Shown one piece after another: positions 12,001-21,272 of a DNA stretch of 32,000 bases (the stretch's first letter is position 1; every line of letters begins with the position of its first letter). This DNA is from Nostoc sp. GTDB lineage: Bacteria; Cyanobacteriota; Cyanobacteriia; Cyanobacteriales; Nostocaceae. Under the pieces are notes generated by a model, which worked only from the letters and a program-made list of their open reading frames with translations, did not search any database and was not told the DNA's origin. The stretch spans positions 69,175-101,174 of the forward strand of contig NZ_JBALDM010000037.1 of assembly GCF_036917435.1 (NCBI RefSeq), read 5' to 3'. The position numbers and the translations under genes were made by a program.

Positions 12001-12040
12001 AACAACCCCGATTTTTTAGTCCATCGGGGTTGTTTTTGTT
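12001..12040. terminator. Hairpin terminator between convergent genes
   Basis: aacaaccccgat (12001-12012) / atcggggttgtt (12023-12034), a perfect 12-bp stem, followed by tttgttt. Confidence 0.7.
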
Positions 12041-13446
12041 TATGAAAGATTTAGGATAGGCACATTTTTACTGTAATATTCAGTTTTGGCATAGATGCTG
12101 ATTATACTATCACCAACTGCAAAAAAACTGCCATCTTGCTCATTTTTAGAAAATTGCAAATTTGGGTATTTAACAGTAGCTTCTTCAGCAGTCATAGGTT
12201 TTGCTTCTATTTGCTCTGGCAATAGTCCTGTACAACCAATGTAAAATACCAAAGGAGAAATTTTATCTTGGTAGATATTTTCTACATATTTCTCTAGCTT
12301 GTTATTCGCTGCCGTCAAAGCTGCGATCGTTTCCTCTTTGCTGATTTGCTTACCAGTTTGTTTATCCTGAAATAACTTCGCCAAACTATCAGCACCAACT
12401 TTCTTAAGAATACCTAAAACTATGCCATTTTGTTCAAGCCCAAGAAAATCATCAAAAATTGGTTTCATTAACTCGTCAACTTTCGTAATCTTGGTACGTG
12501 ATGAAAGTAACCTGTGCCTAACAGCAATATTATCATTAAACATCATCTCAAAACTCGGATTAATAATAATTTCTCCAGTTTCCCGATCGTAAAGACGATA
12601 CATTCTATTCAGAAATTTGTTTGCCGAGGGGAACTTACTCAGGTTTAGAATATCTTGAGTGCCGATATCAATTTTATAGCTCAATCTTGAGTCAAGAGTA
12701 CCATTAAACAGAGCTTCATGGATATTTGCATATTCATTAGTTGTAGGGAAATTGATGTAAATATTCTTGGAGAGATAGTGATTTTTAAACTCATCTAACT
12801 GTGGTGCTATAAATACATCTGATTCCTTTTTTAAGTGAGCAGAAATAATACTAGTAAGCACTTTAATTTCTGCAAGTTGATGGAATACTCCATCAATACT
12901 ACTGTAACGACTATCAGAAGCTACAAGCGGTAAGTTATCTAGATGGATAGAATATTCAGTATGGAAGTCAAATTTTTCTGCATCTAAAACACCCTTTTCT
13001 TTGAGCAAATCAAAAGCTTTTTTACTACTAATTTTGACTTGTAAGGACTTTATGTTGATTTTACCATCACTTACAATTGTGTAGTTATTAAAACTATTGA
13101 GATTATTTACCAGTAAACCTGCTACTTCAAGAGTGGGGGTTTGATCTTCAGATTTGGCAAGTCTGACTTTCCGTTTGATAAGCATATTGATAGTAGCAGT
13201 ATTTCGGTTAAACTGAAACTCTCCCATACCAACATACTCAGCATTATCTATATATTCTGTTTGCAGCCAAGGTTGAAGCAGTTCTCCATTTTCGTTTCTC
13301 ACACCTTTAACCCGTTTGATGCTTGTTCTTTGATAATGTTCTTGTAGATGTTTGATGTTGACGATAATATTGTTACGATATTCTGCAAAAATCCTGATGA
13401 GTTCTAGCAGACAAATTTGATTATTTGTCATATTGTCACCTTCCAT
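12040..13446 (-). CDS. Hypothetical protein, no motif recognised (AT-rich orphan)
   Basis: 468-codon uninterrupted ORF. My counts on two 60-nt stretches gave 33-35% G+C, against 48% in one stretch of the neighbouring mprF-like gene. No GCGATCGC in 1.4 kb. Confidence 0.6.
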   Translation of the reverse strand: MEGDNMTNNQICLLELIRIFAEYRNNIIVNIKHLQEHYQRTSIKRVKGVRNENGELLQPWLQTEYIDNAEYVGMGEFQFNRNTATINMLIKRKVRLAKSEDQTPTLEVAGLLVNNLNSFNNYTIVSDGKINIKSLQVKISSKKAFDLLKEKGVLDAEKFDFHTEYSIHLDNLPLVASDSRYSSIDGVFHQLAEIKVLTSIISAHLKKESDVFIAPQLDEFKNHYLSKNIYINFPTTNEYANIHEALFNGTLDSRLSYKIDIGTQDILNLSKFPSANKFLNRMYRLYDRETGEIIINPSFEMMFNDNIAVRHRLLSSRTKITKVDELMKPIFDDFLGLEQNGIVLGILKKVGADSLAKLFQDKQTGKQISKEETIAALTAANNKLEKYVENIYQDKISPLVFYIGCTGLLPEQIEAKPMTAEEATVKYPNLQFSKNEQDGSFFAVGDSIISIYAKTEYYSKNVPILNLS

Positions 13447-13808: not shown

Positions 13809-15479
13809 TTACGCTCCAGGTTTGAAATAATCAAAAAGGCGATCGCCTGAATCTGCGCGAATCAATGCTACAACTACATCTGGTAAGGCAGCTAAACTGG
13901 GGTAAACTAAATAACGCGGTTCCCAGCCGGGGCGGAATTTGTCTTTGTAGGCGTGTAGTCCCTTGAAGTTGTAGAAGCGATTCAAATGCTCGTAAAGATA
14001 GTGCAATACTCTCTCTAAGCGGCGTGATTCTGGGTTATCTCCAACTCCCGCCAGGGCGGAAAGACCGAAATTAAAGCTGTCGTAACCACACTCTTTAAAA
14101 TGCTGAAGTAGGGAAATAAATAGAAAGTCCATCGTTCCATTCTCAAGAGATGAGCAATGTCGCATCATGTCAATAGTTGCTTCGTTGAGTTGGTACTCGC
14201 GGAGAATGTTGGCAAAAGCGCTGATATTACCTTCAGGATTATGCACCACAGCAATCTCACACTCTCGTAAGTAAGCTTCGTCAAACCAACCTAAAGAAAA
14301 TTGTTTTTCCGAACCTTGTACCATCTTTAGCCATTCATCACTCACAGGTTTGAGGAGGTGCAATAAATCATTGGCGATGGGCGGTTGGTAAAATTCGATT
14401 TGATATCCCAGTTTAGTTAAACGATTGATTGATGGTCTAAAGTTTTTACCTGCCTTACCTTGTAATGTAAAACTTTTTAGATCAACGATCGCTTCTTCTC
14501 CAATTTTGAGTACCTTAAATCCCAATGACTTGTAAAGCTCAACATCATCGGGCAAAGTTTGGTAAAAGCCTGGATACCAGTCATTGCGCTGGCAAAACTG
14601 CTGGAAAGCAACAATTGTCTCTTTGCGTTCTTCAATAGGGCCGATGGGATCTCCTAATGCGATCGCGCCCCTTCCCTTGGGAACATAAGCTATTACACTA
14701 TTACCAGTAGGACTAAAATAATAACTCTTATCATTTAAGAGTGCGATCGCTGCTAAAGAAGAACGTCCATATTGCTCGACAATATCTTTAGCTCTTTTTC
14801 GCTCATTTGATGTTGCTAAATTACGCCAAAACACAGGTTGCAATAACATTACTATTGCATACGTAATAGTAACTGCGGCAATAATATAGATAGAATTAGC
14901 AAAAAATTCTCCAAATCGGCTCTTTGGTTGTAGTCCCCAATTATCCTCAGTGAAGAACATCGCTAAAGTCTGAAGTACAGATTCACGCAAATTAAAATTT
15001 TCTGAAAATTTGTTGTCTAATAAGTAAAATCCAATAGTTCCGTATGCTAGGGTAAATAGCAAAGCACTGACCAGCACTCTAACTCCCCGTGCGATCGAAG
15101 GACGGTCTGATTGCGCGGTGAAAGAATGGCGCATCAAAATCAATTGCATCAGCAAAACTCCAGAGAGGAGACTTTCTTCATAGTCCAATCCCTTAAGTAA
15201 ATGGCTGAGAATAGAAATTACTAGTAAAGCAACGGTCAGTAACCAAGCTATTCTTTTTCGGCGTAATAAGTTAGTAGCAAGTGTGAGTAGAATAAACCCC
15301 GTCAGTGCTGCAAATACATGACCAGTGGCACGAATTTCAAATGGTAAAAATTCTTTCAACCAGTGATTCCGCCCATAGAGGTTAGGTGTCACTGCTGACA
15401 ACAAATTTACTATTCCCACTAAACCTGTAAGGAAGGCTGCACTCCAAAGTCCAATCTTAGTTTTTAAATTATTAGTCAT
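13809..15479 (-). CDS. MprF-like aminoacyl-phosphatidylglycerol synthase (TM region + LPG_synthase_C/DUF2156 domain, no flippase half)
   Basis: 556 aa. About 6 N-terminal TM helices. The C-terminal domain aligns by eye to S. aureus MprF: YGRSSLAAIALLNDKSYYF, ALGDPIG, LKIGEEAIVDL, WEPRYLVYP. Confidence 0.85.
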   Translation of the reverse strand: MTNNLKTKIGLWSAAFLTGLVGIVNLLSAVTPNLYGRNHWLKEFLPFEIRATGHVFAALTGFILLTLATNLLRRKRIAWLLTVALLVISILSHLLKGLDYEESLLSGVLLMQLILMRHSFTAQSDRPSIARGVRVLVSALLFTLAYGTIGFYLLDNKFSENFNLRESVLQTLAMFFTEDNWGLQPKSRFGEFFANSIYIIAAVTITYAIVMLLQPVFWRNLATSNERKRAKDIVEQYGRSSLAAIALLNDKSYYFSPTGNSVIAYVPKGRGAIALGDPIGPIEERKETIVAFQQFCQRNDWYPGFYQTLPDDVELYKSLGFKVLKIGEEAIVDLKSFTLQGKAGKNFRPSINRLTKLGYQIEFYQPPIANDLLHLLKPVSDEWLKMVQGSEKQFSLGWFDEAYLRECEIAVVHNPEGNISAFANILREYQLNEATIDMMRHCSSLENGTMDFLFISLLQHFKECGYDSFNFGLSALAGVGDNPESRRLERVLHYLYEHLNRFYNFKGLHAYKDKFRPGWEPRYLVYPSLAALPDVVVALIRADSGDRLFDYFKPGA

Positions 15480-15498
15480 TAGTCATTAGTCATTGGTT
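15471..15498. repeat. Heptamer array (ATTAGTC x3 + ATTGGTT) covering the mprF-like start codon
   Basis: On the minus strand this gives ATGACTA ATGACTA ATGACTAATAAT. The last ATG is the annotated start. Confidence 0.85.
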
Positions 15499-15510
15499 TT
15501 GGTGTTAAAA

Positions 15511-15533
15511 CAGACGCGATTAATCGTGTCTAC
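15511..15533. repeat. Palindromic small dispersed repeat (copy 4, shorter arms)
   Basis: cAGACGCGATtaATCGtGTCTac. Supplies the last four codons and the stop (SRHD*) of the esterase gene 15520..16428. Confidence 0.65.
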
Positions 15534-16428
15534 TAACTTTTTTAAATTGTTCACCTACATAGAAGAGGGAATCTTTAAGATGCTTGTGGAAGTAATTCCA
15601 GCCTATATTAGCACCAGACAAACCATGACCTCCTGGAAATGCATAAAATACGTGAGCAATGCCTAATTGATTTAAGGTTACGCTGAAGGCTTTGGTAGAA
15701 GCCAACAAATTAGTATCGTTCAAACCTGCATCTAAGTAAACACGCAATTGCTTTCTATCTTCAATTGGTAGCTGTTGCACAATTTGTTGGGGACTATTTT
15801 GTGAACCGCTATTATCAGTAAAATAACCGCTATGGCTAAACAGAATATGGAAAGTGTTGAGATGGCGTAATCCTATATTAAAAGCTCCCCATCCCCCAGA
15901 AGACAAACCTCCCAGCGCCCAAGACTGGGGTTCTTTTAAGGTGCGGTAGCGCGACTTGACAACTTGCACTAATTCTGAACCAATTAAAGTTCCTATTTTG
16001 CCATTCGGGCCATCATAATAATCGGGGTCGTATAAAGGACTCGAACCGCGATTATCATTACCATCAGGTGTAATCACAATTGATGGCGGTAATTTTCCAT
16101 TTTGATAAAGTTCATGCAGTATATCTAAAATTGCATACTTGTCAGCATAAGCACGGGCATCATCATGACCACCATGTAGCAAGAATATCACAGGGTAACG
16201 CTTTTGCTGATTTTTGTTATAGTTAGGCGGCAAAATCACGCCGTAGTTGCGGACTGCACCCATCGCTTGAGAGTTGAAGGTTGCTAATTGAAGTTTTAGC
16301 CCGGTATTTGCCTCTTCTTGGGGTGGGTCTAGTTGTGGCGCACCTAAGATAAATACATAATAATAACCAACAGTAGTCAGGAGTGCGATCGCTCCTAGCA
16401 AACTAATTAATAATTTAGAAATCTTCAT
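15520..16428 (-). CDS. Membrane-anchored alpha/beta hydrolase, 'putative esterase' family (paralogue 1)
   Basis: 302 aa. N-terminal TM anchor. YPVIFLLHGGHDD. Nucleophile elbow GGLSSGGWGA (GxSxG). C-terminal FPGGHG. Confidence 0.8.
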   Translation of the reverse strand: MKISKLLISLLGAIALLTTVGYYYVFILGAPQLDPPQEEANTGLKLQLATFNSQAMGAVRNYGVILPPNYNKNQQKRYPVIFLLHGGHDDARAYADKYAILDILHELYQNGKLPPSIVITPDGNDNRGSSPLYDPDYYDGPNGKIGTLIGSELVQVVKSRYRTLKEPQSWALGGLSSGGWGAFNIGLRHLNTFHILFSHSGYFTDNSGSQNSPQQIVQQLPIEDRKQLRVYLDAGLNDTNLLASTKAFSVTLNQLGIAHVFYAFPGGHGLSGANIGWNYFHKHLKDSLFYVGEQFKKVSRHD

Positions 16429-16565
16429 ATTTATTTAACATTGAAAAAAACACCTTCATTAGAACTTACTATAGTTAACCTGCTGACAAATGGCAGCATA
16501 GTTTTCTAAATTGATGTTTAAATATCAATATTTTTCTCAAATAAAATTATTTATCCTGGAAATTG

Positions 16566-17543
16566 CTAATTATTTGGAGTCCTTTTCTTTTGATTAACAC
16601 CTAAATTACCAGTCATGTTTGCTATTTGAGCAGATTTAAACTGTTCCCCCACAAATGTCAAAGAATCGGCTAAATGTTCCCGCCAGTATTGCCAAGTGTG
16701 ACTCCCAGGAAACTGACGAAGCAAATTATAAACTTTTAGTTCGCTTAGTACGTTAGAAAAGTTTTTGGCTTCGTTGATTTCTTCAATATCTGCTGTACCT
16801 GAATCTAGGTAAATTCGCAATCTTTTTGTAGCTGATGTGGGAATGTTTTTAATATAAACTATTGGGCTATTTGTAGGGCCGCTTTTATCTTGAAAATAAC
16901 CACTATGACTAAATAAAATTGAGAAGTGTTTCAGGTTGTGTAACCCCACATTCATTGCACCCCAACCACCAGAAGATAAACCACCTATTGCCCAAAAATC
17001 AGGATTATTTATTGTCCGATAACGATTTTGCACAACTTTTACTAACTCATCACCTACGGCTGTGGAGACTTTCCCGTTAGGGCCATCGATATATTCGGGA
17101 TCTCGGTAGCGACTAGAGCCGCGTTTGTCGTAGCCATCTGGTGTAATAATGATGCTGGGTGGCAACTTACCTGTAGCATAAAGTTGTTCCACTGTTTTGA
17201 GAGCTTCTCCCTTTTTTTGAATAAACCAATCACTGGGATAACCATGTCCGCCGTGAAGGAGAAAGATTACAGGATACTTTTGTTTTGGGTTTTGTTCATA
17301 GCCAGGGGGTAAAGAAACGCCGTAAGTGCGATTTGCACCCATTAATTGACTATCGTAGGTTTCAATTTTATAAGTTAATAAAGTTGCTGAATCGCCAGTA
17401 TTAGACCGATTTGGAAGAATGGAAGGTGTTGTAGGTAAATCTTGCTGTTGCGGTGGTTTTGCTACGACATTTTCAGATAAATTACAGGCAACTAGGGTTA
17501 AGACTGAAACTAGCAAAAGAATTTTTGATTGTTTATAGTTCAT
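16566..17543 (-). CDS. Membrane-anchored/secreted alpha/beta hydrolase, 'putative esterase' family (paralogue 2)
   Basis: 325 aa. Signal/lipobox-like LTLVAC. YPVIFLLHGGHGY, GGLSSGGWGA, FPGSHTW. Colinear with paralogue 1. Confidence 0.8.
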   Translation of the reverse strand: MNYKQSKILLLVSVLTLVACNLSENVVAKPPQQQDLPTTPSILPNRSNTGDSATLLTYKIETYDSQLMGANRTYGVSLPPGYEQNPKQKYPVIFLLHGGHGYPSDWFIQKKGEALKTVEQLYATGKLPPSIIITPDGYDKRGSSRYRDPEYIDGPNGKVSTAVGDELVKVVQNRYRTINNPDFWAIGGLSSGGWGAMNVGLHNLKHFSILFSHSGYFQDKSGPTNSPIVYIKNIPTSATKRLRIYLDSGTADIEEINEAKNFSNVLSELKVYNLLRQFPGSHTWQYWREHLADSLTFVGEQFKSAQIANMTGNLGVNQKKRTPNN

Positions 17544-17680
17544 CTTTGAAGGGCATTAGACAATCTGTGATCATAAACATTAACTTTACGCAAGTAATTT
17601 GTCAATGTTGTGTCAACAGGATGGAAACTTTGCGACTTGTTGTAAGTTAAAAGTTAAGAGTTAGGATAAGTTTCTTTAGG

Positions 17681-18631
17681 ATGCTTAAAAAACTACAACT
17701 TAATTTCAGCACACTGTTCGGCTTATCGCTGTTGGTGATTTCTGTGGTGGCGATCGCTAACGAACTGCACGAGTATAATTATCGTGATATCCTCAACTCT
17801 CTAGCTGCTATCCCCAAAAGCCGCTTAAGCTGGGCAATTTGGCTGACAGCCTTGGGCTATCTAGTGATGATTGGGTACGATATTTTAGGTTTTAGTTACA
17901 TTAATCGTTCCCTAAACTGGAACAAAATTGCTTTAACCAGCTTTATTAGCTCTGCCTTTAGTAATACTATTGGTTTTGCCCTACTGACTGGTAGTGCTAT
18001 CCGTTATCGATTTTATACTACTTGGGGAGTGTCAGCAGTTGCGATCGCACAAGTAATTGCTTTCGCCAATTTTACTTTTTGGTTGGGGATGTTTGCCGTT
18101 GCAGGTTGCTTGTTCCTCATCAATCCGCTCAAAATTCCCACTCAACTACATTTACCTTTTGCTACTGTGCGTCCCATCGGCGTGATTTTTCTGCTATTAG
18201 TCGCTGGTTATTTGCTAGGAAGTATTTTTATTAAACAACCGTTAATAATTCGTGGACAAGAATTTCGATTTCCTGATTTTAAGATATCCCTTATCCAAAT
18301 AGCAATTTCTGGTTTTGATTGGATTTTAGCAGCAGCAGTTCTTTATGCTGTGCTTCCCGGTAATATATCTTTGTCCTATCTGGACTTTTTGGGTATCTAC
18401 TTACTAGCGATGTTTGCAGGTGTTGTTAGTAATGTCCCCGGTGGTTTGGGAGTATTTGAAACTATAATTTTGCTGATTCTCTCATCTAAAGTTTCGGCGG
18501 CGGCAATTTTGGGTTCAATGCTGGCTTATCGGGGAGTCTATTATTTTTTACCTTTGTTAGTAGCATCGGGTTTGCTAGGAATTTATGAAGTTAGATCCGG
18601 TAATTTAAAAAATATCAATAATAAACCCTGA
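17681..18631 (+). CDS. MprF flippase-like membrane protein (LPG_synthase_TM / UPF0104 family)
   Basis: 316 aa, about 8 TM helices. VPGGLGVFETIILL...AYRGVYYFLPLL matches the IPGGFGAFDLVVLL...LYRFAYYFVP region of the S. aureus MprF N-terminal half. Confidence 0.8.
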   Translation: MLKKLQLNFSTLFGLSLLVISVVAIANELHEYNYRDILNSLAAIPKSRLSWAIWLTALGYLVMIGYDILGFSYINRSLNWNKIALTSFISSAFSNTIGFALLTGSAIRYRFYTTWGVSAVAIAQVIAFANFTFWLGMFAVAGCLFLINPLKIPTQLHLPFATVRPIGVIFLLLVAGYLLGSIFIKQPLIIRGQEFRFPDFKISLIQIAISGFDWILAAAVLYAVLPGNISLSYLDFLGIYLLAMFAGVVSNVPGGLGVFETIILLILSSKVSAAAILGSMLAYRGVYYFLPLLVASGLLGIYEVRSGNLKNINNKP

Positions 18632-18661: not shown

Positions 18662-18700
18662 AGATCCCCGACTTCTTTAAGAAGTCGGGGATCTAAGATT
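18662..18700 (+). terminator. Rho-independent terminator
   Basis: agatccccgacttc (18662-18675) / gaagtcggggatct (18681-18694), a perfect 14-bp stem, then aagatttttgtttatttt. Confidence 0.8.
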
Positions 18701-18872
18701 TTTGTTTATTTTAAATGCGATATCTTCACAACTAACGGCGAAAATTCCTAATTTTTGCTGAGGCGATCGCTAATTCAATTCCATAACAATAGTAATTAGT
18801 TGGAAGCTTTGAATTAGATTTCCATAAATCATCATCAAAATTCCGTTTTACTATTTGAGGATAGAAAGAATC

Positions 18873-19262
18873 ATGAAAAATAAAGTATTGTTTGGTGCTA
18901 TTTTCATGGCAACTTGGGTAGGAACATTAATACCTGGCGCTTTAGCTGCCTCACCCTGTTCTGTGGGACAAAAGGCTGAGGTTTTTTGGAAGGAAACATG
19001 GTATCCAGCAACGGTACTTAAGGTCAAGAATGAGCGTTGCTATATTACTTATGAAGGTTATAGTAGTTCCTGGAATGAATGGGTTGGTACTCAACGCTTT
19101 CGGGCATCATTTCAATCTGGAGATGCAGTGAGAATTTTGTGGAAGGGGAAATGGTATAAAGGGAAGGTTTTAGAAGTTAATAACGATCTTTATAAAATTA
19201 CTTATAATGGCTACGATAGCTCTTGGGATGAGTGGGTTAAACCTTCTAGAGTAAGCAGATAG
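18873..19262 (+). CDS. Exported protein with two tandem Tudor/Agenet-like (SMN-type) domains
   Basis: Start moved to ATG 18873 (gagg upstream). Signal peptide MKNKVLFGAIFMATWVGTLIPGALA. Two repeats: GQKAEVFWKETWYPATVLKVKNERCYITYEGYSSSWNEWV and GDAVRILWKGKWYKGKVLEVNNDLYKITYNGYDSSWDEWV. Confidence 0.65.
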   Translation: MKNKVLFGAIFMATWVGTLIPGALAASPCSVGQKAEVFWKETWYPATVLKVKNERCYITYEGYSSSWNEWVGTQRFRASFQSGDAVRILWKGKWYKGKVLEVNNDLYKITYNGYDSSWDEWVKPSRVSR

Positions 19263-19288
19263 AGAATATTTCACTTTTATAATTCGGG

Positions 19289-19331
19289 AGGGACGATTTC
19301 ATCTGTTGGAGTCGTCCCTTTAATTTGTTTT
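19289..19331 (+). terminator. Rho-independent terminator
   Basis: agggacga (19289-19296) / tcgtccct (19312-19319), then ttaatttgtttt. Confidence 0.6.
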
Positions 19332-19459: not shown

Positions 19460-19620
19460 TAAATGCTAGACAAGTCTAGACATTTATTTCTTACTTCACT
19501 GGGAGCATGGGAGCGGTTATCCCTCAGTAAGCTTTCAAGGTTTAGCCAACCTCGATAAATTTATTGCTGCGTTTAAATCCCTGTCCATTGAATGACCACA
19601 ACTACCACAGTTATAGGTTC
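19460..19620 (-). ncRNA. Predicted TnpB guide RNA (omega/reRNA) scaffold; extent not determined
   Basis: Position only. In characterised TnpB systems the RNA overlaps the tnpB 3' end and runs to the transposon right end. A CTAGAC-aa-GTCTAG hairpin lies at 19466-19479. No structure or covariation could be tested. Confidence 0.3.
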
Positions 19621-20611
19621 TTTCCATAAGTGGCATCTCTTGAATATGCCCACACTTTGAACAGGTTTTACTGGACGGATACCAACGGTCAGCAATTATT
19701 ATTTCGCAACCAAATTTTTTAGCTTTATATTCTAACTGGCGCTTGAACTCATGGAAGCCACAATCAGCTATCACCTGAGCTAATTTATGGTTGGCTAGCA
19801 TACCAGAGATATTCAAATCTTCTACTACTATTTTTGCGTGGTTTTTGCATAAGAAAGTAGTGATTTTATGGAGAGTATCTTTTCGGAGGTTTGCTACCCT
19901 AGCATGATGTTTAGCGAGTTGAATTTTAGCTTTATATCTGTTGTTAGAACCTTGATTTTTTCTAGCAAATGTTCTAGATAACCTTCTGAGCTTTTCTAGA
20001 TTGGTTTTGTAATGTTTGGGATTAGGAAAAACTACGCCAGTAGATAGCGTAGCTAGTTCTTTAACGCCAACATCAACTCCAACTACCTCATGTTGTTTAA
20101 TAGTTGGAGTATGATTTTGTTCGTAAGCAAAAGCAATAAACCAACTGTCAGCAGTCCGAGAAATAGTAATATGAGTACAAATAGTATGTGGCAAGCCTTC
20201 GTAAGTTTTGACCCATCCGATTGTAGGCAGTTTTATTGACTTACCTCCAACAGGGATAGGCTTACCACTAGCATCAATAGTAAAAGAATCGTGATGACCT
20301 TTCTTTTTAAACTTAGGATATCCGCCTTTACCACTAAGAAATCTAGAGAAAGCATCCCCCAGGTTGTCGAAAGCGTATTGAGTTATCTTTTGGCAAACTC
20401 CCTTTTCTTTAATCCATGAAAACTCAGGTTTAACATGATTGTTGAAGAACTTTTTAAGAATATATTTATTAGGCTTCAATCCATCGCTATATAAGTCTTT
20501 CCAAGTAGCTAAACCCCAGTTGTAGGTAAACCTAGCAATCCCAGCATGTTTACACATTATTATTTCTTGGGCTTTACTTAGTTTTAACTTTGTTTTGATG
20601 GATAAAAGCAT
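19535..20611 (-). CDS. tnpB: TnpB (OrfB) RuvC-like RNA-guided nuclease
   Basis: 358 aa. RuvC triad candidates in VGVDVGVKELA, IVVEDLNISGM and MDRDLNAAINL. Zinc finger CSKCGH...CGSCGH. Confidence 0.9.
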   Translation of the reverse strand: MLLSIKTKLKLSKAQEIIMCKHAGIARFTYNWGLATWKDLYSDGLKPNKYILKKFFNNHVKPEFSWIKEKGVCQKITQYAFDNLGDAFSRFLSGKGGYPKFKKKGHHDSFTIDASGKPIPVGGKSIKLPTIGWVKTYEGLPHTICTHITISRTADSWFIAFAYEQNHTPTIKQHEVVGVDVGVKELATLSTGVVFPNPKHYKTNLEKLRRLSRTFARKNQGSNNRYKAKIQLAKHHARVANLRKDTLHKITTFLCKNHAKIVVEDLNISGMLANHKLAQVIADCGFHEFKRQLEYKAKKFGCEIIIADRWYPSSKTCSKCGHIQEMPLMERTYNCGSCGHSMDRDLNAAINLSRLAKP

Positions 20612-20621
20612 TGTTTCGACC

Positions 20622-21272
20622 TCAACACTGGATTTCTTTGTTGTCTAATTCTGTAATATCTTGTATGGGTTTGTCAATAGCCTTTTCAAAAGTATCTTTA
20701 AGTTCTTTAGAATAGTTCCTTAACCCGTACAAGCGACAAGAAAAACAATGAATAATTGCCATTAAATCTTCTACAAGTTCTTGTTGAGGTGAAAGAGATT
20801 CTTGATTCGCTACCACTATTTCACAACCTACTGAGGTTGCTAGTTCTTGAATAAATTCAAAGGCAAATCTGCACAAGCGATCCTTATGGGCTAATACGAG
20901 GATAGAAACTTCACCTTTAAGAATTGAAAAAATAATAGATAAAAATTTCTTTCTTTTAAAATTCAATCCCCCACCAATCTCAGAAATCCAATCATCAACA
21001 GCTAAACCGCGATTTAGGCAGAATATTTCCATTGCTGATATCTGATTTTTTAGTTCTGGCTTTTGACCACTAGAAGACACGCGACAATAAACAATTACTT
21101 TTCGCTTTGCAACAGTTGGCTTTAATCCTTGAGCTACCAATAAATCATCTTCAGTATAAAAACGATGTCCCGATAAAGTTCTCAAGGCTGGGAGTTTTCC
21201 TGCGGTATCCCATCTCTGTAAGGTTTTAACGGATACTCCGATCTTTTGTGCAAACTCATGAGGCTTAAACAT
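20622..21272 (-). CDS. tnpA: IS607-type serine recombinase transposase TnpA
   Basis: 216 aa. MerR-like HTH FAQKIGVSVKTLQRWDTAGKL. Catalytic-serine motif VIVYCRVSSSGQK. Resolvase core HKDRLCRFAFE. Confidence 0.9.
   Translation of the reverse strand: MFKPHEFAQKIGVSVKTLQRWDTAGKLPALRTLSGHRFYTEDDLLVAQGLKPTVAKRKVIVYCRVSSSGQKPELKNQISAMEIFCLNRGLAVDDWISEIGGGLNFKRKKFLSIIFSILKGEVSILVLAHKDRLCRFAFEFIQELATSVGCEIVVANQESLSPQQELVEDLMAIIHCFSCRLYGLRNYSKELKDTFEKAIDKPIQDITELDNKEIQC

Follow-up and report, generated by a model that had tools for sequence, protein, structure and literature searches.

What do two esterase genes do when they lie between the two separated halves of an MprF-type lipid-aminoacylating system? 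The question is raised by a stretch of 32,000 nucleotides from Nostoc sp. (assembly GCF_036917435.1, contig NZ_JBALDM010000037.1, positions 69,175 to 101,174 of the forward strand), which we analysed as a whole and call the window. It carries a synthase gene (13809..15479, minus strand), two esterase genes on the same strand (esterase 1, 15520..16428; esterase 2, 16566..17543) and, beyond a strandless divergent intergenic region (17544..17680), a flippase gene on the opposite strand (17681..18631, plus strand); these four open reading frames (ORFs) have exactly the coordinates given in a preliminary description of this DNA. Aminoacylated lipids alter membrane surface charge, which elsewhere in bacteria leads to cationic-peptide resistance and to tolerance of acid and other stresses. 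We think it probable that the four genes form a module for lipid aminoacylation, and we put at about 60% the whole reading, in which a synthase, a flippase and esterases that trim the aminoacyl lipid work together. The preliminary description, which had assumed phosphatidylglycerol (PG) as the acceptor, appears right in outline: the module is predicted to make and process an aminoacyl lipid. The Nostoc cluster is a cyanobacterial variant of a pairing of synthase and esterase already reported in other bacteria.

The coupling of esterase to synthase is the observation that carries this reading. We drew 401 genomes evenly from across the cyanobacterial phylum and searched them for the esterase at a threshold of E ≤ 1e-30. 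It was present in 30 genomes, every one of which also encodes the synthase, and in 29 of these, spread over seven family codes, the two genes lie no more than 1.3 kb apart on the same strand. The single exception has the genes on two contigs of a draft assembly. In several genomes the two reading frames overlap by 4-8 bases at their start and stop codons. Twelve sampled genomes have a synthase match without an esterase, and in four of these the match is only a fragment or a protein consisting of the C-terminal domain alone. Synteny had been proposed earlier as a means of checking a functional link between esterase and synthase, and the survey bears that link out, all the more as the adjacency recurs in three other phyla (below).

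Within the genus the full arrangement, flippase and divergent esterase 2-esterase 1-synthase, stands on one contig in at least 18 of 24 sampled Nostoc genomes, and four others have it divided over two contigs, as flippase plus esterase 2 and esterase 1 plus synthase. Outside the genus there is a single esterase, which is of the esterase 1 type, and in other cyanobacterial families the esterase 1 orthologue immediately precedes the synthase gene; esterase 1 is therefore the widely conserved synthase partner. Esterase 2 forms a separate, well-supported subclade in the tree described below and is a duplicate that predates the diversification of the Nostocales. One genome, G347, offers a further form of the pair (L016:3389-5505, plus strand): a 354-residue protein with only the LPG_synthase_C domain and no membrane part precedes the esterase, with a 4-base overlap, as a putative soluble-synthase variant.

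The association extends beyond cyanobacteria. An exhaustive search of representative sequences yielded five full-length clusters of close esterase relatives; the matches then fell off steeply to generic esterases of about 30% identity, many of them multi-domain. We also scanned genomes, one per species, with an alignment of the nearest single-domain relatives as query, and identified neighbours by ORF and phmmer analysis. Among the 80 loci recovered, a gene for an aminoacyl-phosphatidylglycerol synthase (aaPGS) lies beside the esterase in 16, ten of them non-cyanobacterial. These ten pairs come from Ktedonobacterales, Dormiibacterota, Gaiellales, Streptosporangiaceae and one unclassified actinomycete, that is, from the phyla Actinomycetota, Chloroflexota and Dormiibacterota, and Pfam confirmed a sample of them. 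The linked esterases of Chloroflexota and Dormiibacterota have an N-terminal extension of about 280 residues ahead of PF00756 (L024:5251-6801, L032:5203-6783 and L090:5152-6819); it matches nothing in Pfam and is possibly a membrane domain of several helices.

A maximum-likelihood tree of 70 esterase domains, built by a quick search, places all 38 synthase-adjacent esterases on the same side of one branch (Shimodaira-Hasegawa-like approximate likelihood ratio, SH-aLRT, 83). Five further esterases share that side; four of these have a synthase or flippase gene as neighbour or stand where a contig ends. On the other side stand 26 esterases from Bacteroidota, Pseudomonadota and others, none of them adjacent to a synthase gene. 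Mapped onto this tree, the adjacency label changes 6 times, against an average of 23 in shuffles. A sequence signature, SxSGYF together with NSP, is common to the linked esterases only, being gapped or different in the others. Clustering of the esterases with carbohydrate or siderophore esterases, and a lack of synteny with mprF-like genes in relatives, had been named at the outset as findings that would speak against the module; tree and synteny give neither. As judged from these comparisons, this esterase clade appears essentially confined to sites beside aminoacyl-lipid synthase genes, in cyanobacteria and three other phyla. Because the genes are adjacent in cyanobacteria, recur as pairs in other phyla and group together in the tree, the esterases almost certainly act on the product of the synthase.

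Are the two proteins plausible enzymes, and where would they act? Both are serine esterases matching PF00756 (E-value 4.5e-20 for esterase 1, of 302 residues, and 6.2e-25 for esterase 2, of 325), and they are paralogues lying between synthase and flippase genes as first described, 51% identical over 260 residues (E 2e-93) and containing the shared motifs quoted at the time. In an alignment of 36 sequences the nucleophile S176, within GLSSG, is invariant, as are H268 and two aspartates, of which D238 is also conserved in non-cyanobacterial relatives; both esterases are predicted to have a complete Ser-Asp-His triad. D233 was considered as the catalytic acid and rejected in favour of D238, the acid conserved outside cyanobacteria. 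The closest match of the esterase is in Nostoc sp. LEGE 12447. An AlphaFold (AF2) model with a mean predicted local distance difference test score (pLDDT) of 84.7 comprises an alpha/beta-hydrolase core that a flexible linker joins to an N-terminal helix. In NCBIfam the esterases matched enterochelin esterase and xylanase/feruloyl esterase, and those only weakly. No VirJ domain (PF06057) was matched in either esterase at E-values up to 0.01, and the Pfam search found no carbohydrate-binding module in them.

Both esterases had been taken to be membrane-anchored, and both are tethered, as export signals kept across their orthologues attest, though by different modes. Esterase 1 is signal-anchored, with an N-terminal helix (residues 2-27) followed by a conserved juxtamembrane motif, GYWYVF-GAPQLDPP. 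Esterase 2 is held not by a helix but as a lipoprotein: it has a lipoprotein signal peptide with the lipobox LVAC, whose cysteine is shared by the orthologues from Nostoc, Aulosira and Calothrix. Given the signal anchor of the one and the lipobox of the other, the catalytic domains should lie on the non-cytoplasmic face of a membrane. The two esterases may, as was suggested at first, also differ in substrate or compartment; the difference seen between them here is confined to how they are anchored.

The synthase gene encodes 556 residues comprising MprF membrane subdomain 2 and a cytosolic synthase domain of tandem GCN5-related N-acetyltransferase (GNAT) folds. Its match to PF09924 (LPG_synthase_C) is full length (profile positions 3-298 of 298, E 1.4e-85), and it covers positions 316-840 of the 841-position NCBIfam profile for bifunctional MprF in a single stretch; these two matches bear out the earlier view that this ORF is only the C-terminal half of an MprF, with about six transmembrane (TM) helices and the synthase domain. 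A hydropathy scan gave 5-6 hydrophobic TM segments at the N-terminus. The protein aligned to residues 353-843 of RtMprF, the MprF of known structure from Rhizobium tropici, and its soluble part aligned end to end with solved lysyl-PG and alanyl-PG synthase domains (4v36, 4v34, 5vrv, 6lv0). The motifs quoted for it are present, and two of them, LKIGEEAIVDL and WEPRYL, fall in conserved columns of the solved synthase domains of B. licheniformis, P. aeruginosa and the rhizobial LpiA. The highest synthase-domain score, 225 bits, is to the lysyl-PG synthase of B. licheniformis; scores against lysyl-PG and alanyl-PG enzymes overlap (225, 208, 193 and 192 bits) and do not discriminate the amino acid.

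The remaining part of MprF, subdomain 1 (TM1-8), is the product of the flippase gene, a 316-residue protein of the PplT/UPF0104 type. It matches PF03706 (LPG_synthase_TM) over profile positions 5-301 of 302 and the NCBIfam MprF profile over positions 4-303 of 841, so that, with PF00756, every domain expected from profile hidden Markov models was confirmed on the predicted proteins. The split of MprF over a synthase gene and an opposite-strand flippase gene is likewise borne out by the Pfam and NCBIfam matches. The locus does not encode a single-polypeptide MprF with an N-terminal flippase, its parts being two genes on opposite strands, and the two NCBIfam MprF scores, 514 and 227 bits, both fall below the 600-bit equivalog cut-off. 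The flippase aligned to RtMprF residues 37-325 and to two further solved MprFs (7f47, 9goe). It retains the motifs IRYR107, PGGLGVFE253 and YRGVY283, together with D213, which aligned with a conserved aspartate of 7f47 and 9goe and is a candidate counterpart of RtMprF D234. YRGVY corresponds to the YRxxY head-group motif and aligned with YRLIY of the solved MprFs; in RtMprF this motif (Y303, R304, Y307) contacts the lysyl-PG head group (PMC8131360). The membrane part of RtMprF consists of Subdomain 1, Leu24-Arg325 (TM1-8), and Subdomain 2, Ser334-Arg530 (TM9-14) (PMC8131360). Since the flippase aligned to RtMprF 37-325 and the synthase to 353-843, the Nostoc gene break lies at the boundary between the two subdomains.

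How closely does the flippase belong to the synthase? Searched for at E ≤ 1e-20, a flippase homologue was found in only 18 of the 37 sampled cyanobacterial genomes with a full-length synthase, and it is absent from one genus that contributes ten esterase-synthase genomes to the phylum sample. Conversely, 31 of 52 flippase-bearing cyanobacterial genomes have no LPG_synthase_C domain at all (the flippase homologues are 39-53% identical), so the flippase-like protein must have a role independent of lipid aminoacylation. One family code illustrates the disparity, with the flippase in 20 of 20 genomes and the synthase in 4 of 20. The flippase is no dedicated partner of the synthase.

Where synthase and flippase genes are clustered outside Nostoc, they stand in synthase-then-flippase order, either as separate co-directional or overlapping genes or fused. 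The fused form is a permuted polypeptide of about 880 residues with PF09924 before PF03706, in which a six-helix subdomain is followed by the synthase domain and a C-terminal eight-helix flippase (for example L011:3328-6048, plus strand). It is widespread in cyanobacteria, with about 95 clusters among those listed (P0296-P0390) and named sources that include Leptolyngbya, Nodosilinea, Phormidesmis, Waterburya, Chondrocystis and Synechococcus sp. GFB01. We know of no description of this permuted synthase-then-flippase MprF architecture.

These arrangements bear on a proposal in the preliminary description, that the 137-bp spacer between esterase 2 and the flippase (its length is as given there) holds a divergent promoter for the independent control of synthesis and translocation. 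Divergent transcription from this spacer is specific to Nostoc and close relatives, and with co-directional, overlapping or fused genes elsewhere it is not a general design; the idea is weakened further by the synthase genomes without a flippase, about half, and by the 31 flippase genomes without a synthase. The flippase-proximal part of the spacer, some 80 bp (about 17597-17675), is nearly invariant in five Nostoc genomes and contains two TGTCAA repeats, and the rest is variable, with indels. Such conservation suggests a regulatory or leader element, which may be either an operator or a leader. A consensus scan placed no sigma-70-like site in the 137-bp spacer, promoter-like sites across the window were no more numerous than in shuffled sequence, and no Rfam family was matched in the window, the spacer included.

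Taken together, these parts suggest a route of three steps. The synthase would use aminoacyl-tRNA to esterify a membrane lipid, most likely PG, in the cytoplasmic leaflet. The aminoacyl lipid would then reach the outer leaflet, with help from the separately encoded flippase in genomes that have it. There the tethered esterases would cleave the aminoacyl ester, setting the steady-state level of charged lipid. Operon-encoded hydrolases that regulate aminoacyl-PG levels are established elsewhere (PMC6103681, PMC13197417); AhyD and VirJ are aminoacyl-PG hydrolases, and the 'putative esterase' is one of three hydrolase types that recur in aaPGS operons, types that the same review describes as structurally unrelated (PMC6103681). 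The Nostoc esterases most likely serve lipid homeostasis by hydrolysis. The earlier suggestion that they are aminoacyl-PG hydrolases holds as to their link to an aminoacyl-lipid synthase, with PG entering it only as an assumption. The precedents it invoked, the VirJ/AcvB/PA0919 and AhyD hydrolases, belong to the wrong families: with PF00756 and no VirJ match, the Nostoc esterases fit the 'putative esterase' type.

Several observations weigh against so simple a scheme. The branch that unites the linked esterases has moderate support, its SH-aLRT value of 83 coming from a quick search. The nearest solved relatives of the esterases are feruloyl and other carbohydrate esterases of carbohydrate esterase family 1 (CE1), at 20-26% identity. 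Cyanobacterial signal sequences can target the thylakoid lumen or the periplasm, so the signals found here do not fix the compartment. About half of the synthase-bearing genomes lack a flippase homologue. Finally, PesT, an esterase encoded with the alanyl-diacylglycerol synthase (AlaDAGS) of C. glutamicum and the one member of this esterase type to have been studied, promotes a second aminoacyl lipid rather than just lowering the first, according to the account in PMC6103681.

That last point leads to the alternative that survives best, though we consider it unlikely: the esterases would be aminoacyl transferases, which take the aminoacyl group off the flipped lipid as an acyl-serine intermediate and hand it to a second extracytoplasmic acceptor, be it a lipid, a glycolipid or an envelope polymer. 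PF00756 includes genuine transesterases, the mycolyltransferases, and Protein PS1 (6sx4), a mycolyltransferase relative, is among the sequence matches of the esterases. Two differently tethered paralogues, with clade-specific invariant motifs beside the nucleophile, would also fit a specialised acceptor site. As the review recounts it, PesT is required for alanyl-PG to appear, that lipid being seen only when PesT is co-expressed with AlaDAGS; PesT has been proposed as either a transferase, moving alanine from alanyl-diacylglycerol to PG, or a hydrolase (PMC6103681). However, the Nostoc cluster has no conserved gene for a second acceptor or a partner, the 468-residue neighbour described below being limited to the genus, and every other aaPGS-linked enzyme so far characterised is a hydrolase (PMC6103681, PMC13197417).

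More doubtful again is the view that the synthase uses an acceptor other than PG, namely glucosyl- or galactosyl-diacylglycerol or diacylglycerol itself, with the esterases tuned to that product. Cyanobacterial membranes are dominated by glycolipids, PG being a minor component, and our literature search gave no report of aminoacyl-PG, or of aminoacylated lipids in general, in any cyanobacterium. Some MprF homologues do use glucosyl-diacylglycerol (Glc-DAG), diglucosyl-diacylglycerol (Glc2-DAG) or diacylglycerol (PMC11630815, PMC10580965, PMC6103681). Against this, the synthase domain most resembles enzymes known to use PG, as its 225-bit best score indicates, and the flippase keeps the aminoacyl-PG head-group-binding residues of RtMprF, two comparisons that lean toward PG and are not rigorously discriminating. 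A bolder combination, which we regard as improbable, would have the module make a lipid new to cyanobacteria, possibly an aminoacylated glycolipid, the esterases act as transferases to a second envelope acceptor, and the permuted synthase-then-flippase order represent a distinct cyanobacterial branch of MprF; if true, it would amount to a lipid-carrier route analogous in logic to the D-alanylation of teichoic acids. That the esterases are instead ordinary exported carbohydrate or lipid esterases, whose position beside MprF genes is meaningless, is strongly disfavoured: CE1 feruloyl or acetyl-xylan esterases are indeed their top sequence and fold matches and the weak NCBIfam matches point the same way, but the adjacency holds in 29 of 30 genomes and seven family codes, often with overlapping frames, and is found again in three further phyla, the linked esterases have their own clade and signature motif, and none of the 401 sampled genomes has this esterase without the synthase.

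Several further features surround the four genes. Downstream of the synthase, at 12040-13446 on the minus strand, lies a gene for a 468-residue soluble protein that matches nothing in Pfam or NCBIfam. Its position is kept in four Nostoc relatives and not in Aulosira, Calothrix or the genome G021; we rejected it as a fifth member of the module because its conservation is limited to the genus, and its product is probably only a neighbour. Just 3' of the flippase gene is a terminator-like hairpin of 15 pairs (18662..18694, plus strand), followed by a gene for a 135-residue protein with two Agenet/Tudor-knot-like repeats (18855-19262, plus strand), itself followed by a strong hairpin at 19287-19321. 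Domains of this kind are typically eukaryotic chromatin readers; the gene adjoins the flippase in two other Nostoc genomes as well. About 270 bp past it lies an IS607-type element (19535-21272, minus strand), made up of a transposase of the serine-recombinase type at 20622-21272 (NF033518, E 8e-61) and, at 19535-20611, the RNA-guided nuclease TnpB (E 2.5e-87).

What might such a module be for? Cyanobacterial membranes are the seat of photosynthesis and require PG. The module is patchily distributed, occurring in about 1 in 10 sampled genomes, and is common in Nostoc. In two relatives, another Nostoc and a member of a different genus in that family, all that is left is fragments of flippase and/or synthase, with no esterase (G132:C1:3584021-3584479; G197:C1:3771903-3772526 and 6639002-6639226), decay that marks the module as dispensable. 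This patchy spread, the commonness in Nostoc and the decay in relatives suggest a niche-specific trait, perhaps linked to soil, symbiosis or desiccation. The coupling of esterase to synthase over four phyla offers a tractable, non-pathogenic system in which to settle the function of PesT-type proteins, a question dating from 2015, and the natural two-gene and permuted forms show that the three parts of MprF can be rearranged.

The nearest known system is AlaDAGS-PesT of C. glutamicum (Smith et al. 2015, as presented in PMC6103681; used in PMC10580965), which likewise sets an MprF-family synthase beside a 'putative esterase'. As in the Nostoc synthase, the canonical N-terminal flippase domain is absent from the AlaDAGS polypeptide, and PF00756 esterases of other Actinomycetota, encoded directly upstream of aaPGS homologues, group with the cyanobacterial ones in our tree. 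Unlike AlaDAGS-PesT, Nostoc has two differently anchored paralogous esterases and a separate flippase gene, and its synthase is much closer to PG-type MprFs. PesT is probably a PF00756 protein, to judge by the review's wording 'putative esterase', and the Nostoc esterases are provisionally assigned to its type by description and context. With the CE1 feruloyl and acetyl-xylan esterases (for example PDB 5vol, 7b5v, 7xrv) the Nostoc esterases share an alpha/beta-hydrolase core and a nucleophile elbow of the GxSxG form, but those enzymes, 20-26% identical to them, are without membrane anchors, aaPGS synteny or the SxSGYF/NSP signature.

Measured against the bifunctional MprFs (S. aureus MprF, R. 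tropici LpiA/RtMprF and P. aeruginosa MprF), the Nostoc locus has all three structural parts with their conserved motifs. In contrast to the canonical protein, its subdomain 1 is encoded by a separate gene on the opposite strand, and other cyanobacteria invert the canonical order, with subdomain 1 encoded after the synthase or joined to the C-terminus of the synthase. The domains of S. aureus MprF function as separately expressed proteins (Ernst 2009, as cited in bioRxiv 10.1101/2022.03.11.483950). PA0919 of P. aeruginosa and AcvB/VirJ/AtvA of Agrobacterium and Rhizobium are exported, membrane-associated serine hydrolases that are encoded with the synthase and set aminoacyl-PG levels (PMC6103681, PMC13197417). 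The logic that we propose for Nostoc would be the same as that of PA0919 or AcvB with MprF, carried out by a different hydrolase family.

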